64,000 bases of DNA from a virus (lineage: Duplodnaviria > Heunggongvirae > Uroviricota > Caudoviricetes), in IMG/VR virus record IMGVR_UViG_3300017917_003521; one strand, written 5' to 3'. Below the pieces are notes generated by a model. It saw only the letters and a program-made list of their open reading frames with translations. It did no database searches and was not told where the DNA came from. Position numbers and translations under genes: made by a program. Shown here piece by piece: positions 7,997 through 29,459 of the stretch (position 1 is its first letter; each line of letters opens with the position of its first letter).

Positions 7997-8020
7997 TCTT
8001 TCATCAAAAGAAGTAAACGG

Positions 8021-8053
8021 AACCCAGTCAGTGAAAATTGACTGGGTTTTTTT
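8021..8053 (+). terminator. Intrinsic terminator/attenuator before Ile/Gly/Ala tRNA array
   Basis: AACCCAGTCAGT-GAAA-ATTGACTGGGTT plus U-tract. Confidence 0.85.
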
Positions 8054-8057
8054 ATTT

Positions 8058-8138
8058 CGGCAGATACCGGTCCAATCTTATACATTGGATATCCGTAGTG
8101 GTAAGTTGAAAACGTGGGTTCGAATCCCACTCTGCCGA
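8058..8138 (+). tRNA. D-arm-less rearranged tRNA with TAT (Ile) anticodon loop
   Basis: CGGCAGA/TCTGCCG acceptor, CCAAT-CTTATAC-ATTGG right after a 7-nt connector, 25-nt variable region, canonical T arm. Confidence 0.6.
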
Positions 8139-8345: not shown

Positions 8346-8428
8346 GCGGGTGTCGTATAACGGTAGGTAATTCGACATTACACCTGGCTTCCAACCAGGA
8401 GACGAGGGTTCGACTCCCTTCACCCGCT
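8346..8428 (+). tRNA. tRNA-Gly (TCC) with enlarged D loop
   Basis: CCTGG-CTTCCAA-CCAGG; D loop TAACGGTAGGTAATTCGACAT. Confidence 0.85.
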
Positions 8429-8435
8429 CAACTAT

Positions 8436-8511
8436 GGGGATGCATGTACCAAGGCTTTGGCGAGTCTGCTTTGCAAGCAAACTGTGGTGGGTTCGATTCC
8501 CATCATCTCCA
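8436..8511 (+). tRNA. tRNA-Ala (TGC)
   Basis: TTTGCAA loop, G3-U70, A73. Confidence 0.8.
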
Positions 8512-8516
8512 CAAAA

Positions 8517-9634: not shown

Positions 9635-10456
9635 ATGAAAACAAAAGACACCTTCGGGGATCGTATGAAAATGTACGAAAACCAAACCTGTGGAATTAGA
9701 TTAATTCCCAGAATTCCAGTAATTGCCCGTCTTGATGGTAAAGGATTCTCTAAATTTACTAAAGGTCTTAAAAGACCGTATGATGAAAGACTATCTAAAT
9801 TGATGATTGAAACTACTAAGTATTTAGTTAAAGAAACTAATGCAAACTGTGGCTATACTCAATCTGATGAAATCACTTTAATGTGGTACACTGATAAGAT
9901 CGATGCTTCAATTTATTTTGATGGTCGTTTATTTAAGATGCTTTCCGATCTTTCGGCTATGGCTTCTGTATTCTTTAATAGAAAACTTAGCGAATATCTT
10001 CCAGAAAAGGCTGATAAGATGCCTAGATTTGATGCTAGAGTTTACAACGTTCCAACTTTAGATGAGGCGATGAATTCATTCCTTTGGAGAGAACAAGATG
10101 CAACTAAGAACTCAATTACTATGGCGGCTTCTCATTATTACTCTCACAAAGAGTTACACGGAAAGAATGGAAATGAAAAACAAGAAATGCTTTTTCAAAA
10201 AGGTGTTAATTGGAATGATTACCCAACTTTCTTCAAGAGGGGTACTTATGTACAAAGAAAAAGAGTTTTAACTCCTTTCAGCGCTGAAGAGATTGAAAAA
10301 CTACCAATTAAACACAATGCTAGAAAAGATCCTAGTATGTTAATTGAAAGATGGGTTATTGATGTGGTTGAATTACCTAAACTATCAAGTATTGAAAATT
10401 CTGTTGAAGTTATTGTTTTTGGTGAAGAACCTAAATTAAAAAGTCCAGTTATTTAA
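9635..10456 (+). CDS. thg1: tRNA(His) guanylyltransferase / Thg1-like 3'-5' polymerase
   Basis: ARLDGKGFSKFTK, GYTQSDEI, FDARV, WREQDATKNSI motifs. Confidence 0.92.
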   Translation: MKTKDTFGDRMKMYENQTCGIRLIPRIPVIARLDGKGFSKFTKGLKRPYDERLSKLMIETTKYLVKETNANCGYTQSDEITLMWYTDKIDASIYFDGRLFKMLSDLSAMASVFFNRKLSEYLPEKADKMPRFDARVYNVPTLDEAMNSFLWREQDATKNSITMAASHYYSHKELHGKNGNEKQEMLFQKGVNWNDYPTFFKRGTYVQRKRVLTPFSAEEIEKLPIKHNARKDPSMLIERWVIDVVELPKLSSIENSVEVIVFGEEPKLKSPVI

Positions 10457-15803: not shown

Positions 15804-15888
15804 TGGTAGGTACCCGAGCGGTATTCAGGGACTAGTCTGATACACTAGGTGAGAAATCACGACATGGGTTCAAATCCCATCCTACCAA
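15804..15888 (+). tRNA. tRNA GAT (Ile) with long variable arm
   Basis: CTAGT-CTGATAC-ACTAG; V arm GTGA-GAAA-TCAC; Tyr-like body. Confidence 0.75.
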
Positions 15889-15894
15889 CAACAT

Positions 15895-15972: not shown

Positions 15973-16051
15973 GCCTCAGTAGCCGAGGTCGCCTTCTAAG
16001 CGACTAATCGTAACGGAACTGAAAATGTAGGTTCGAATCCTACCTGGGGTA
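15973..16051 (+). tRNA. D-arm-less rearranged tRNA with TCT (Arg) anticodon
   Basis: GCCTCAG/CTGGGGT acceptor, 8-nt connector, GTCGC-CTTCTAA-GCGAC, 22-nt variable region, canonical T arm. Confidence 0.65.
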
Positions 16052-16057
16052 CAAAAT

Positions 16058-16130
16058 GGTCTCCTCGTCCAACTGGATAGGACATCGGTCTTCTAAACCG
16101 AGAATATGGGTTCGAATCCCGTGGAGACTA
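16058..16130 (+). tRNA. tRNA-Arg (TCT)
   Basis: TCGGT-CTTCTAA-ACCGA. Confidence 0.9.
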
Positions 16131-16138
16131 CAAAAAAT

Positions 16139-16227: not shown

Positions 16228-16315
16228 TGGCAGGTAGCCTAGTGGTTCAGGCACCAGACTGTTAATCTGAGAGAAGAAATTCTCAACGTGGGTTCGAATC
16301 CCACCCTGTCAGCCA
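16228..16315 (+). tRNA. tRNA GTT (Asn) with long variable arm, CCA encoded
   Basis: CCAGA-CTGTTAA-TCTGA; V arm GAGAA-GAAA-TTCTC; G73. Confidence 0.75.
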
Positions 16316-16578: not shown

Positions 16579-16661
16579 GGTACTGTGGCCGAGTGGTGTC
16601 GAAAGACGAGAGGCACAGATCTGCAAAATCTGTCACACTGGTTCGAATCCAGTCAGTACCT
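16579..16661 (+). tRNA. tRNA-Cys (GCA) with hairpin inserted in the D loop
   Basis: CAGAT-CTGCAAA-ATCTG; GTC-GAAA-GAC in D loop; U73. Confidence 0.85.
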
Positions 16662-16944: not shown

Positions 16945-17028
16945 GCCGATGTGGCTCAGTGGCGACAGCACTGGTTTTGTAAACCAGAGACGAATAGTCC
17001 AACGGGGGTTCGAGTCCCTCCATCGGCT
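16945..17028 (+). tRNA. tRNA TGT (Thr) with long variable arm
   Basis: CTGGT-TTTGTAA-ACCAG; V arm GAC-GAATA-GTC; U73. Confidence 0.75.
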
Positions 17029-17043
17029 CAAAATAAATCACCT

Positions 17044-18693: not shown

Positions 18694-20157
18694 ATGAAAA
18701 ATATAGTAACAAGAATTGCACCTTCTCCAACTGGACCGTTTGCACATATTGGTAATGTGAGAACTCTATTGTATAACTACTTTCTTGCTAAAAAGAATGG
18801 TGGTAAATTCTATGTTCGTTTGGAAGATACCGATCGTGATAGATATAATGCCTCGTTTTTAACATACTTTAAAGATATGTGTGATTGGCTTGGTATAGTA
18901 CCTGATGGTTCTTATTGGAACCCTGATCCATCTATTGGCTCATTCACTCAATCAACAAGAGATTATTCAGATAAGGTTAAATTCCTTTTAGATAAAGGTT
19001 TGGCTTACTATGCCTTTGATACTAAGGATGATTTAGACGCACTAAAGGCTAAAGGTCTAAAGTATGACTCAACAACTCGCATGTCTATGAATAACTCATT
19101 GACTAATCCATCCACTGATATTATGTTACAAAGTGGTGTTCCTTATGTAATTAGATTTGCTGTTCCAGCTGACTTAGATGTAACTTTCACTGATGCTATT
19201 TTAGGTGATATCACAATCAACACAAATACTTTAGATGATAAAGTTTTAATTAAGTCAAATGGAATTGGCTCATATCATCTTTGTAATGTTTGTGACGATC
19301 ATGATATGGGTGTTACTCACGTTCTTAGAGGTAACGAGTGGGTAAACTCTACTCCTTTCCACGTTATTCTTTATAAGGCTTTTGGTTGGGATGTTCCTAC
19401 ATTTGCTCACTTACCTTTAATTATGAATCCAGATGGTAAAGGTAAGTTGTCTAAGAGAACTGCTATGAAGTATGGTATTCCTATCGCACCACTTGGTTAC
19501 ACAGATGATAATGGTGTTTATACACCAGGTTGGAAAGACTTAGGATATGATCCTAAAGCATTTATGAACTATCTTGCTTTAATTGGTTGGAATCCAGGAG
19601 CTGAAGTAGAAATTATGTCTATGGATGATATGATTAATTTATTCTCTTTAGATAGAGTTCACAAGTCTGGTGCTCGTTTCGATATGGATAAAGCTAAGTG
19701 GATGAACTCTCAATATCTTAAATTAACAGATAACAAAGACTTGATGCCTTATGTTGATGTAGTTGACGATAGATATTCTGATGATAAATTAGACATGATT
19801 GTCTCTTTGGCTAAAGATAGATCTGACTTTAAAACTGACTTGAATAAAATTGTTAAATTATTCTTTGATGTCCCTTCTATCGATGATAGAAGTAAATTAG
19901 ATGATAACTATACAAAAGTTATGTCAGACTTTATCAACAAAATTGATACAATTAACTTTGATGATACAAACTCAATCAAAGACACTATCTCATCAATCTG
20001 TAATGATTTAGGTGTTAAGATGGGTAAAGTAATGCCTGGTTTAAGAATGGCTTTGGTATCCGGGATTGCTGGACCAGACTTAATGACAACAATGTCAATT
20101 CTAGGTAAAGACCAAACAAAATTGAGAATTAATAACTCAATTACGGTAATGGCTTAA
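18694..20157 (+). CDS. gltX: Glutamyl-tRNA synthetase
   Basis: RIAPSPTG, HIGN, RLEDTD, VLRGNEW, KLSKR, anticodon-binding tail. Confidence 0.95.
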   Translation: MKNIVTRIAPSPTGPFAHIGNVRTLLYNYFLAKKNGGKFYVRLEDTDRDRYNASFLTYFKDMCDWLGIVPDGSYWNPDPSIGSFTQSTRDYSDKVKFLLDKGLAYYAFDTKDDLDALKAKGLKYDSTTRMSMNNSLTNPSTDIMLQSGVPYVIRFAVPADLDVTFTDAILGDITINTNTLDDKVLIKSNGIGSYHLCNVCDDHDMGVTHVLRGNEWVNSTPFHVILYKAFGWDVPTFAHLPLIMNPDGKGKLSKRTAMKYGIPIAPLGYTDDNGVYTPGWKDLGYDPKAFMNYLALIGWNPGAEVEIMSMDDMINLFSLDRVHKSGARFDMDKAKWMNSQYLKLTDNKDLMPYVDVVDDRYSDDKLDMIVSLAKDRSDFKTDLNKIVKLFFDVPSIDDRSKLDDNYTKVMSDFINKIDTINFDDTNSIKDTISSICNDLGVKMGKVMPGLRMALVSGIAGPDLMTTMSILGKDQTKLRINNSITVMA

Positions 20158-25971: not shown

Positions 25972-26028
25972 AATAATATTATTATCTTTGTACTCACAGA
26001 AGAAAAATAAATAAAAAATAAAAAAATA

Positions 26029-26102
26029 TTTGACAAATTAAAACTTTGTTGTATATTTGTATAAAATAAGAACAAAAGGAACAAAAACTTTTTAATATAT
26101 AC
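26029..26102 (+). promoter_or_regulatory. Promoter cassette (host-type TTTG-N19-TATATTTG plus phage motif), duplicate of 15430-15480
   Basis: 30-nt identity CAAAAGGAACAAAAACTTTTTAATATATAC at 15451-15480 and 26073-26102. Confidence 0.7.
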
Positions 26103-26106
26103 TGAA

Positions 26107-26205
26107 ATGAAAAACTTAAACTTAAATATTGTTAACCCGCAACCACAAGTTGTAATCGATCAGGATCCTGGTTCGAAAGGGGCTAACTATGTGGTTTTAA
26201 GTTAA
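26107..26205 (+). CDS. Leader peptide 4 MKNLNLNIVNPQPQVVIDQDPGSKGANYVVLS (putative Pro/Asp attenuator)
   Basis: 32-aa ORF between promoter cassette and terminator. Confidence 0.75.
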   Translation: MKNLNLNIVNPQPQVVIDQDPGSKGANYVVLS

Positions 26206-26226
26206 ACAAGATATTAACTATGAAAC

Positions 26227-26261
26227 AAACCCAGTTAGTCGAAAGATTAACTGGGTTTTTT
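26227..26261 (+). terminator. Intrinsic terminator/attenuator before Pro/Asp tRNA array
   Basis: AAACCCAGTTAGTC-GAAA-GATTAACTGGGTTT plus U-tract. Confidence 0.85.
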
Positions 26262-26273
26262 GTTTTAACATAA

Positions 26274-26347
26274 CGGGAAGTGACTAAGGTTTTAAGCACG
26301 GGTGTTCTGGAGACATCAGTTAGTCGGTTCGATTCCGACCTTCCCGA
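26274..26347 (+). tRNA. Atypical tRNA-Pro (TGG; C33, A37)
   Basis: C1-G72, A73; GGTGT-TCTGGAG-ACATC. Confidence 0.6.
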
Positions 26348-26354
26348 CAAAAAT

Positions 26355-26426
26355 GGTCTAGTGGTGAAGTGGCTATCATATCTGCCTGTCACGCAGAAGT
26401 AGAGGGATCGAAACCCTTCTAGACCG
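26355..26426 (+). tRNA. tRNA-Asp (GTC), T loop ATCGAAA
   Basis: TCTGC-CTGTCAC-GCAGA, G73. Confidence 0.85.
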
Positions 26427-26952: not shown

Positions 26953-27534
26953 ATGAACTTGAAAGAGGAAATTAAAAATTGTTATAGTGTATCAGATTTT
27001 TGTAGATTATTAAATTTATCACAAGGTGGTGGTGGATTTTCTAAAGCGAAAAAAATAATACAAGATAACAATCTGGATATATCACATTTTGATAAGGGTT
27101 ACTTGAAAAGACAAAAGAATCCTAAAATTGAAAAGGTTTGTCCAGTTTGTGATAAGAAATTTGAAACGGTTACTTGGAGCAATAGAAAAGAAAAAGTTAC
27201 TTGTTCTAAGTCGTGTGCTAACTCTTACTTTAGAAGTGGTGTTGATAACCCAAACTGGAAAGAAGAATCATACAGAACTACTTGTTTTTATTATCACAAA
27301 AAAGAATGTATAATATGTGGTGAGGAAAAAATTGTAGAGGTTCATCATATGGATGAAAATCATATGAATAATAAACCCGAAAATTTAGTACCTTTGTGTC
27401 CTACTCATCATCAATATTGGCACTCAAGATATAAAGAGGAAATAGAAGATAAAATATATAACTACATAAAAGAATTTAAAATGAGAACAACAACACAATA
27501 CCAGCAACAACAACAAATTAATCCAACGGATTGA
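26953..27534 (+). mobile_element. Free-standing HNH homing endonuclease; last 17 codons are the Gln leader peptide
   Basis: CPVC...CSKSC, CIICG..VEVHHMDENHMNNKPENLVPLCPTHH. Confidence 0.85.
27481..27534 (+). CDS. Leader peptide 5 MRTTTQYQQQQQINPTD (putative Gln attenuator)
   Basis: In-frame ATG after an A-rich stretch; CAA-TAC-CAG-CAA-CAA-CAA-CAA. Confidence 0.8.
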   Translation: MRTTTQYQQQQQINPTD

Positions 27535-27854: not shown

Positions 27855-29459
27855 ATGAATTTCATTGAAGAAAAAATATTAGATAAAGGTAATCTTGATA
27901 AATTAACTTTAAGATTCCCACCAGAGCCAAATGGTTATTTACATATTGGTCACGCTAAATCCATTATCTTAAATTTTGGATTGGCTGAAAAATATAATAG
28001 ACCTTGTAACTTGAGATTTGATGATACAAATCCAACTACTGAAGATACACATTTTGTTGAATCTATAATAAAAGATATAGAATGGTTAGGCTACAAGCCT
28101 GCTAATATTTTCTATACATCTGATTACTTTGAATTTATTTACAAATGTGCTGTTACTTTAATTAAGAAAGGTCTAGCTTATGTTGATGATTCAACATCTG
28201 AAGAAATTGCTAACTTAAAAGGAACACCCACAGTTGCTGGTAAAGATTCACCATACAAGTCAAGAACTATTGAAGAAAACTTAGATCTATTTAATAGAAT
28301 GAGATTAGGTGAATTTGTTGAAGGTTCTAAAATTCTTAGAGCTAACATTGATATGGCTTCTCCTAATATGATTTTAAGAGATCCTGTTATTTATAGAATA
28401 ATATCTAAGTCACATCATAGAACTGGTGATACTTGGAAGATTTATCCAATGTATGATTTTGCTCATCCTTTAAGTGATTATAACGAAGGTATTACTGATT
28501 CTTTATGTACTTTAGAATTTGAAGTTCATAGACCTTTATATATGTGGGTCTTAGAAAATTGTGATTTAGAAAATCCTTTACCAGAAGAAACTGAGTTTGC
28601 TCGTTTGAACATTGACTATACAGTTATGTCAAAGAGAAAGTTAAAGAGATTAGTTGAAGAATCTTATGTTGATGGTTGGGATGATCCAAGAATGCCTACT
28701 ATCTCTGGATTAAGAAGAAGAGGTTATACACCAAGTGCTATTAAAGATTTTTGTGATAGAATTTCTGTTACTAGAAAAGATGGTGTTGTTTCTTATTCTT
28801 TACTTGAAGAATGTCTAAGAACCGAATTGAATAAGACTGCTCCAAGATTAATGGGTGTCATGGATCCTGTTAAGTTAGTTGTTACTAATTTTGAAGGTGA
28901 AGGATATTGTGAAATTGACAATAATCCAGAAGATGAAAATGCTGGTAAAAGAAAAGTTTCTTATTGTAATGAATTTTGGATTGAAAAAGAAGATTTCAGA
29001 GAAGAAGCCAATAACAAATATCACAGATTAAAGTTAGGTGGTGAAGTTAGATTAAAAGGATTGTTTATAGTTAAAGCCAATGAAATAATTAAAGATGAAA
29101 ACGGTGAAATTATAGAAATCAGATGTACTTATGACCACGATGCTTGGATTGGTGTTACTGAAAAGAGGGTTAAAGGTACTATTCACTGGGTTTCTGTTAA
29201 CCACGGAGTTAAGATGAAAGTAAACGATTATGATAGATTATTTATCAATAGTTCACCAGACAAAGGAGATGAAGATTTTACAACTCATGTCAATCCTAAC
29301 TCATTAGTTATTAATGATAATGCTATCTTTGAGGAAAATGTAAAAGATTGTAAAGTAGGTGTGCCTGTTCAAATGATGAGAAAAGGTTACTATGTTTTAG
29401 ATAAAGATGGTAAGTCTTGGAACAGAACTGTAAGTTTGAAAGAAGGATGGGTAGGTTAA
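27855..29459 (+). CDS. glnS: Glutaminyl-tRNA synthetase
   Basis: RFPPEPNGYLHIGHAKS, RFDDTNP, IYPMYDFAH, CTLEF, MSKRKL, KGTIHWVS. Confidence 0.96.
   Translation: MNFIEEKILDKGNLDKLTLRFPPEPNGYLHIGHAKSIILNFGLAEKYNRPCNLRFDDTNPTTEDTHFVESIIKDIEWLGYKPANIFYTSDYFEFIYKCAVTLIKKGLAYVDDSTSEEIANLKGTPTVAGKDSPYKSRTIEENLDLFNRMRLGEFVEGSKILRANIDMASPNMILRDPVIYRIISKSHHRTGDTWKIYPMYDFAHPLSDYNEGITDSLCTLEFEVHRPLYMWVLENCDLENPLPEETEFARLNIDYTVMSKRKLKRLVEESYVDGWDDPRMPTISGLRRRGYTPSAIKDFCDRISVTRKDGVVSYSLLEECLRTELNKTAPRLMGVMDPVKLVVTNFEGEGYCEIDNNPEDENAGKRKVSYCNEFWIEKEDFREEANNKYHRLKLGGEVRLKGLFIVKANEIIKDENGEIIEIRCTYDHDAWIGVTEKRVKGTIHWVSVNHGVKMKVNDYDRLFINSSPDKGDEDFTTHVNPNSLVINDNAIFEENVKDCKVGVPVQMMRKGYYVLDKDGKSWNRTVSLKEGWVG

Follow-up and report, generated by a model that had tools for sequence, protein, structure and literature searches.

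Two genes in a tailed phage probably encode working tRNAs with a rewired core: E1, which we read as an elongator tRNA-Ile(UAU), and E2, which we read as a tRNA-Arg(UCU). Both are members of a conserved phage family, and both lie in a 64,000-nt stretch of Caudoviricetes DNA (IMG/VR record IMGVR_UViG_3300017917_003521), the whole of which was analysed and is referred to here as the window.

Layout and detection of E1 and E2

Both genes are situated inside tRNA arrays, and on inspection the acceptor stem, T arm and anticodon arm of each are perfect, and neither has a D hairpin (Table 1). A previous, sequence-only reading of the window had described E1 as having perfect acceptor and T arms, a 7-nt connector, an anticodon loop CTTATAC and a 25-nt region ending in TGAAAAC, all of which can be read directly from the letters. 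It had also claimed that E1 is devoid of a D hairpin, on which the sequence and its alignment to the Rfam tRNA model (RF00005) agree, and that a motif resembling a D-loop follows the anticodon arm on its 3' side, where we find TAGTGGTAA. The same architecture was proposed at 15973, and E2 does follow the plan of E1 there, with an 8-nt connector and a 22-nt stretch separating the anticodon arm from the T arm.

Neither gene is among the 37 tRNAs that ARAGORN called in the window, and the program gave almost no correct calls among viral members of the family. RF00005 matched both end to end (model positions 1-71), with 39.6 bits for E1 and 36.7 bits for E2 relative to a gathering score of 29, and both belong to the Rfam tRNA family by virtue of a full-length match above that threshold. 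In these alignments the D-arm is deleted and approximately 20 nt are inserted in the variable region. The arms expected of a tRNA are otherwise in place in both, namely a 7-bp acceptor stem, a 5-bp T stem with the T-loop consensus, and an anticodon arm of 5 bp and 7 nt with U33 and R37. The D-arm of the canonical cloverleaf (positions 10-13 with 22-25) is missing, the gap from acceptor to anticodon stem being only 7-8 nt. The tertiary signature U8, A14, R15:Y48 and G18-G19 is nevertheless present, at positions that are shifted in the primary sequence.

The earlier reading had suggested a covariance model as a check. We built one (R1) from 62 distinct family sequences, and homologs with conserved pairing were found. 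R1 scored E1 at 79 bits and E2 at 81 bits, compared with 33 bits for the best canonical tRNA in the window, a gap far beyond chance. The best other match to R1 reached 33 bits, and the window therefore contains exactly two members. Both have the features by which the family is recognised: helices D1 and D2 around the anticodon arm, a bulge of the form UA-R-YY-GG, and a UGAAAAY linker.

Table 1. Positions of the parts of E1 and E2 and of features upstream of E1 (numbering of the window).
Feature	Position	Strand	Remark
E1 acceptor stem, 5' strand CGGCAGA	8058-8064	+	Perfect match to TCTGCCG at 8131-8137
E1 connector TACCGGT, 7 nt	8065-8071	+	Read from sequence
E1 U8, A9, C10	8065-8067	+	C10 (8067) is the 5' side of short helix D1
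E1 helix D2, 5' strand CGG	8068-8070	+	Partner is CCG at 8093-8095
E1 T8071	8071	+	Position-26 analogue; D2 strand continues through it into the anticodon stem
E1 anticodon arm CCAAT / CTTATAC / ATTGG	8072-8088	+	5-bp stem, 7-nt loop, U33, A37 (8082)
E1 anticodon TAT (UAU)	8079-8081	+	Read from sequence
E1 stretch between anticodon arm and T arm, 25 nt	8089-8113	+	ATAT CCG TAGTGGTAA GT TGAAAAC
E1 spacer ATAT	8089-8092	+	Read from sequence
E1 helix D2, 3' strand CCG	8093-8095	+	Sequence and family covariation
E1 D-loop-like bulge TAGTGGTAA	8096-8104	+	Directly 3' of the D2 3' strand
E1 bulge analogues		+	A14 = 8097, G15 = 8098, G18 G19 = 8100-8101, U20 = 8102
E1 helix D1, 3' side	8105-8106	+	G8105 pairs with C8067; T8106 may pair with A8066
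E1 linker TGAAAAC	8107-8113	+	C8113 is the Y48 analogue
E1 T arm GTGGG / TTCGAAT / CCCAC	8114-8130	+	Read from sequence
E1 acceptor stem, 3' strand TCTGCCG	8131-8137	+	Read from sequence
E1 discriminator A73	8138	+	CAA follows; CCA not encoded
E2, anticodon UCU (15995-15997)	15973-16051	+	Same plan as E1; second family member in the window
E2 helix D1	G15982-C16019	+	C15983/A16018 mismatched
E2 helix D2	15984-15986 with 16008-16010	+	CGA pairs with TCG
E2 bulge TAACGGA	16011-16017	+	A20 analogue is 16017
E2 linker	16020-16026	+	A16013 pairs with T16026 (R15:Y48)
26-codon ORF with two ATA codons	7916-7996	+	Upstream of E1
Terminator-like hairpin and T-run	8019-8056	+	Ends one base before E1

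Other elements of the window also stood out. A tRNA-Gly(UCC)-like gene at 8346-8428 has a 13-nt insertion in the D-loop, matches the Rfam tRNA model at 49.9 bits and received no ARAGORN call; a further Rfam tRNA match at 16579-16661 (57.4 bits) is likewise absent from the ARAGORN list. At 8436-8514, a tRNA-Ala(UGC)-like element combines a good acceptor stem and T arm with an odd D region containing a small hairpin, and its sole match was tmRNA-like (28.5 bits). Three of the ARAGORN tRNAs, at 15804-15889 (GAT, Ile), 16228-16315 (GTT, Asn) and 16945-17029 (TGT, Thr), have long variable arms and measure 85-88 nt, as class-II tRNAs do, although these anticodons are normally found on short-armed tRNAs.

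Covariation and fold of the core

The 62 sequences were aligned with MAFFT, and members had been chosen without use of D-helix pairing. Paired cells made up 98.6% of the acceptor stem, 97% of the anticodon arm and 99% of the T arm, with many double changes, and in the anticodon stem both partners of every pair vary. All 62 members have T8 and A9. The TA of the bulge is likewise invariant, and GG follows 1-4 nt downstream in every parsed member. The invariance of TGAAAA within this set is uninformative because that motif was part of the search pattern; other linkers occur among the members found with R1.

Helix D2 joins the three connector nucleotides ahead of the anticodon arm to the three that precede the invariant TA, and corresponds to the pairing of connector CGG with CCG that the earlier reading had proposed for E1. 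Its three positions (columns 12-14 with 38-40) are paired in 62/62, 60/62 and 41/62 members, by GC, AU, CG and UA types. In 2000 shuffles the observed count was never attained at any position, and slid controls collapsed. The proposed pairing is thus borne out by covariation across the family.

Helix D1 is formed by the one or two connector nucleotides before D2 and those just before TGAAAA. Among members with an 8-nt connector (columns 10-11 with 50-51), its pairs are present in 30/32 (GC 21, AU 9) and 27/32 (CG 19, UA 7) sequences, counts that were reached by 0/5000 and 43/5000 shuffles, the latter for pair 11-50. For the 7-nt class, to which E1 belongs, the second base ahead of TGAAAA is paired with position 10 (columns 10/50) in 13 of 20 informative members, which no shuffle reached (0/5000). 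D1 is the statistically weaker helix, and one of its pairs is mismatched in E2.

The tertiary contact R15:Y48 (columns 43 with 58) also covaries, being A-T in 35 members, G-C in 23 and other in 4; within either connector class, 0/5000 shuffles reached the observed count. When every pair of columns was ranked by mutual information, in an unbiased scan, the helices described here alone took the top places, and the best pair outside them was the classical Levitt pair R15:Y48, here formed by the R of TA-R and the last base of the linker. Because the contacts of D2, D1 and R15:Y48 covary, the data support a D-stem that is split around the anticodon arm and a D-loop that has become a bulge. The label "D-arm-less" used in the earlier reading holds only in part: there is no D hairpin, but the connector and two segments that follow the anticodon arm together re-form a D-stem, and it covaries.

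Thermodynamic folding gives a plainer picture. The RNAalifold consensus contains the three standard arms only, with D1 and D2 unpredicted, and the case for both helices thus comes from covariation and not from energy. By nearest-neighbour energies D2 is slightly favoured (-1.4 to -1.8 kcal/mol) and D1 is penalised (about +4), for which reason D1 would need tertiary support.

A functional tRNA with a different core fold was considered as well, in which UACCG of the connector pairs with UGGUA of the GG motif, so that the GG would not be free to contact the T loop. This pairing is part of the minimum-energy structure that RNAfold predicts for E1 (-26.5 kcal/mol), yet its variable positions are paired at shuffle level in the family (43/62 versus a mean of 42.3, and 22/62 versus 23.7), whereas for the competing D2 pairing every one of the three positions outdoes all 2000 shuffles. 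We rejected the UACCG/UGGUA core for its lack of covariation, and regard such a fold as very improbable.

Two further structural candidates were set aside. A class-II tRNA with a long variable arm does not match the 22-25 nt region, which forms no hairpin of its own and has none in the RNAalifold consensus. An intron or other removable insert is incompatible with the sequence on inspection, since deletion of the anticodon-like hairpin leaves no anticodon arm.

In the split D-stem that we favour, positions 10-14 would follow U8 and A9 as one continuous strand, leading straight into the anticodon stem across a single unpaired base. This strand would pair with a partner 3' of the anticodon arm, itself divided in two: three nucleotides pairing with 12-14 (D2), a bulge of 8-9 nt carrying the D-loop signature U-A14-R15-YY-G18-G19-N20, and one or two nucleotides pairing with 10-11 (D1). 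The conserved UGAAAAY linker would then stand in for the variable loop, with a T arm of the standard form behind it. The net result would be a transfer of the D-loop, and of the 5' half of the D-stem, to the 3' side of the anticodon arm. Stacked together, D1, D2, the position-26 analogue and the anticodon stem would give about 11-12 layers, as many as a canonical tRNA has when its stack is counted from the anticodon stem to the layers formed by 8-14 and 15-48. As the layer count equals that of the canonical stack, the distances of the L shape are plausibly kept. We therefore expect a three-dimensional arrangement in which U8:A14 and R15:Y48 would still form, the bulged GG would still dock on the T loop, and the geometry from anticodon to CCA would be maintained.

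Distribution of the family and genomic context

Viral contigs were scanned with a pattern comprising only the shared linker and T arm, which returned at least 120 loci, and a script parsed the matches for an acceptor stem and anticodon arm, leaving the D region unused. The build of E1 and E2 occurred in 73 of the 121 viral-contig matches listed, representing at least 62 distinct sequences. Searching the flanks of the viral loci with R1 added approximately 36 further members, with other T loops and linkers. Across the viral scan and flanks, at least about 100 distinct sequences share this architecture, and some viral contigs carry three or four copies. Mean column identity in the alignment of 62 sequences is 65%, and the alignment therefore does not derive from one recent clone.

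Nearly all members bear Arg or Ile anticodons. Most are tRNA-Arg (UCU, CCU, ACG, UCG and CCG), with tRNA-Ile (UAU and GAU) as the second large group, and CAU, CUU and UGU occur as single cases.

With the same linker and T-arm pattern, the family build was present in only 7 of the 121 matches listed from prokaryote genomes. Four of these seven loci were scanned, and all adjoin other tRNA genes. In three of them, on contigs from metagenome-assembled genomes (MAGs; L161, L170 and L232), the family member is embedded in a dense array of 7-18 mixed tRNA genes within 8 kb, and in the fourth (L219) only two tRNA genes neighbour it. The three array-bearing contigs resemble prophages, or phage DNA that was binned into MAGs. 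The rewired tRNA family is thus found almost only in phages.

Members were also detected in cultured phages, all of them unannotated: Vibrio phage D260, where the member occupies a gap of the phage tRNA array, Microbacterium phage Pumpernickel, and Felix O1. The Felix O1 member (NC_005282, 25951-26029) is divergent; its anticodon is UCU and its D2 helix CTC/GAG, and it has GGA and encodes CCA. An HNH endonuclease CDS (26003-26395) begins, as annotated, within this member, and for that reason the start codon of the CDS may be mis-called.

HNH endonuclease genes in such arrays, both in the window and in Felix O1, lend some support to the notion that E1 and E2 are decayed tRNA pseudogenes, or ones scrambled by recombination, for example through homing-endonuclease activity, as does the failure of ARAGORN to call them. 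We give this notion almost no credence. All stems of E1 are perfect, the approximately 100 distinct sequences carry compensatory changes in every helix, and members span viral contigs, huge phages, and phages of Vibrio, Microbacterium and Salmonella; decay is contradicted by the covariation of the helices. The earlier reading had itself proposed a family rather than decay, and with at least 62 distinct sequences, some 36 more and covarying helices, we concur.

The surroundings of E1 are shared with related phages. [quoted passage not shown] The short ORF and hairpin may represent leader-peptide control of the tRNA array. Downstream of E2, a canonical tRNA-Arg(UCU) called by ARAGORN (16058-16131) adjoins the gene, and E2 is consequently at least partly redundant.

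Between the tRNA arrays, genes at 9635-10456, 18694-20157, 27855-29459 and 26953-27534 encode a Thg1-like tRNA-His guanylyltransferase, two class-I synthetases of the Glu/Gln type (GluRS/GlnRS-like) and a protein with a weak HNH nuclease match. The Thg1-like enzyme and the synthetases fit a huge phage that invests in translation. In a megablast comparison of the array region with GenBank phages, only short matches were obtained, to unannotated uncultured phages of 630-735 kb.

Identity elements, codon demand and known tRNA architectures

Position 20, directly after GG, is occupied by A in each of the 40 Arg members and by U or G in 20/21 Ile members, and the discriminator is A73 in all 21 members with an Ile anticodon. 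CCA is encoded in 22/40 Arg members. In bacteria, the Arg determinants are A20, C35 and U/G36, and those for Ile include A73, A35, U36, A37 and U20 (PMC9976931, Table 1). By these rules, E2 possesses the listed Arg elements, having the anticodon UCU and A16017 directly after GG. E1 has the listed Ile elements UAU, A37 (8082), A73 (8138) and T8102 after GG, along with C4-G69. It is without the Ile determinants U12-A23 and C29-G41, its D2 pairs being C-G, G-C and G-C and its 29-41 pair A-U, and position 34 is U, not G or lysidine. With U34 unmodified, a UAU anticodon is at risk of reading AUG. Across the family, the bases at positions 20 and 73 fit the identity rules of bacterial ArgRS and IleRS.

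The window has a GC content of 29.8%, AUA accounts for 41% of its Ile codons and AGA for 86% of its Arg codons, and the UAU anticodon of E1 is the only one found in it. Once transcribed and processed, E1 and E2 would be charged by ordinary bacterial enzymes, ArgRS acting via A20, C35 and U36 and IleRS via A73, A35, U36 and U20. On the ribosome they would serve AUA and AGA, the dominant codons of this 30%-GC phage.

Phage tRNA arrays have been tied to defence evasion. Together with the non-canonical shape and the duplication of the E2 anticodon by the neighbouring canonical tRNA-Arg(UCU), this speaks for a tRNA mimic that is unused in decoding and serves as a decoy for host anticodon nucleases or other tRNA-targeting defence proteins, or as a processing signal in the array transcript. 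A mimic, however, would have no need of synthetase identity bases that vary in step with the anticodon, and position 20 is A in all 40 Arg members and position 73 is A in all 21 Ile members; neither a decoy nor a processing signal would readily account for such a link. Nor would a mimic need the CCA encoded in 22/40 Arg members or a covarying 7-bp acceptor stem. In addition, E1 provides the sole UAU anticodon of a window in which 41% of Ile codons are AUA. We consider the mimic unlikely.

E1 and E2 share with canonical bacterial and phage class-I tRNAs (RF00005) the 7-bp acceptor stem, the 5-bp T stem with its TTCGAAT loop, the 5-bp/7-nt anticodon arm, U8, A14, R15:Y48 and G18-G19, as well as A20 for Arg, A73 and U20 for Ile, and location in arrays. 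Unlike canonical tRNAs, the phage family has no D hairpin; the 10-14 strand continues into the anticodon stem, and its partner strand and the D-loop motif come after the anticodon arm, which is set 20-25 nt apart from the T arm. There are three arms rather than four.

The closest natural precedent is the D-armless mitochondrial tRNA-Ser(AGY). D-armless mitochondrial tRNAs, comprising animal tRNA-Ser(AGY) and nematode forms, are described in PMC7609411 and in PMC9427863 (the latter as cited in PMC11551756). According to PMC7609411, many mammalian mitochondrial tRNAs lack conserved motifs, both G18/G19 and those of the T loop; the forms that have no D-arm are flexible, and they function together with factors that co-evolved with them. 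The phage family resembles animal tRNA-Ser(AGY) and the nematode D-armless tRNAs in the missing D hairpin, the short connector and the lengthened anticodon arm. It differs from them in keeping G18-G19, a full T loop, R15:Y48 and bacterial identity bases, and it must work with a bacterial cytosolic system that is not adapted to it. The family is thus set apart from organellar tRNAs that have lost the elbow motifs: GG and TTCGAAT are retained, and the genes reside in phages.

According to PMC11551756 (2024), all known bacterial tRNAs are cloverleaves, and natural arm-less tRNAs are restricted to mitochondria. The synthetic D-arm-less 'mini HisT' of E. coli, from which bases 11-25 were deleted, was unstable and needed a pnp mutation, and was accepted by the bacterial aminoacyl-tRNA synthetase, EF-Tu and ribosome (PMC11551756). 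Like 'mini HisT', the phage family has no D hairpin; unlike that artificial molecule, it is natural and conserved, and its D-loop elements are relocated rather than deleted.

Allo-tRNAs of the (8/4) and (9/3) types have an altered acceptor/T split, long variable arms and a normal D hairpin; they are natural, come from metagenomes and phages, and frequently carry UAU and Arg anticodons (PMC5389517). Both groups are natural, non-standard architectures in phages, but the family described here has the standard 7/5 split and a rewired D region. Segment order also departs from the standard in permuted algal tRNA genes, where processing restores a normal cloverleaf. In the Cyanidioschyzon merolae genes, as described in PMC3728597, the 3' half of the coding sequence precedes the 5' half. 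The rearrangement in the phage family is, by contrast, internal, and would persist in the mature RNA. In the full-text literature searched, whose coverage is partial, we found no description of a non-cloverleaf architecture with a split D-stem; an older description is possible.

Why phages would keep such a shape may be addressed directly in cultured phage-host pairs. An attractive if rather doubtful idea is that escape from host tRNA-directed defences or surveillance is the reason: the rewired core might keep synthetase identity and evade those host tRNA-directed nucleases, surveillance or modification dependencies that recognise the standard core, acting as structural counter-defence and not merely as a codon supplement. 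Resistance to anticodon nucleases, which the earlier reading had put forward for testing, is speculation.

If our reading is true, the family would be a widespread natural exception to the cloverleaf rule, using an unadapted bacterial translation apparatus. The tRNA core would tolerate changed strand connectivity provided that the tertiary signature and arm length are kept, and the rewired tRNA would offer a ready-made scaffold for orthogonal or engineered tRNAs. Given that members have gone unannotated in Felix O1, D260 and Pumpernickel, phage tRNA repertoires are systematically under-counted, and the missed genes would be readers of AGA, CGN and AUA, those most important for AT-rich phages.
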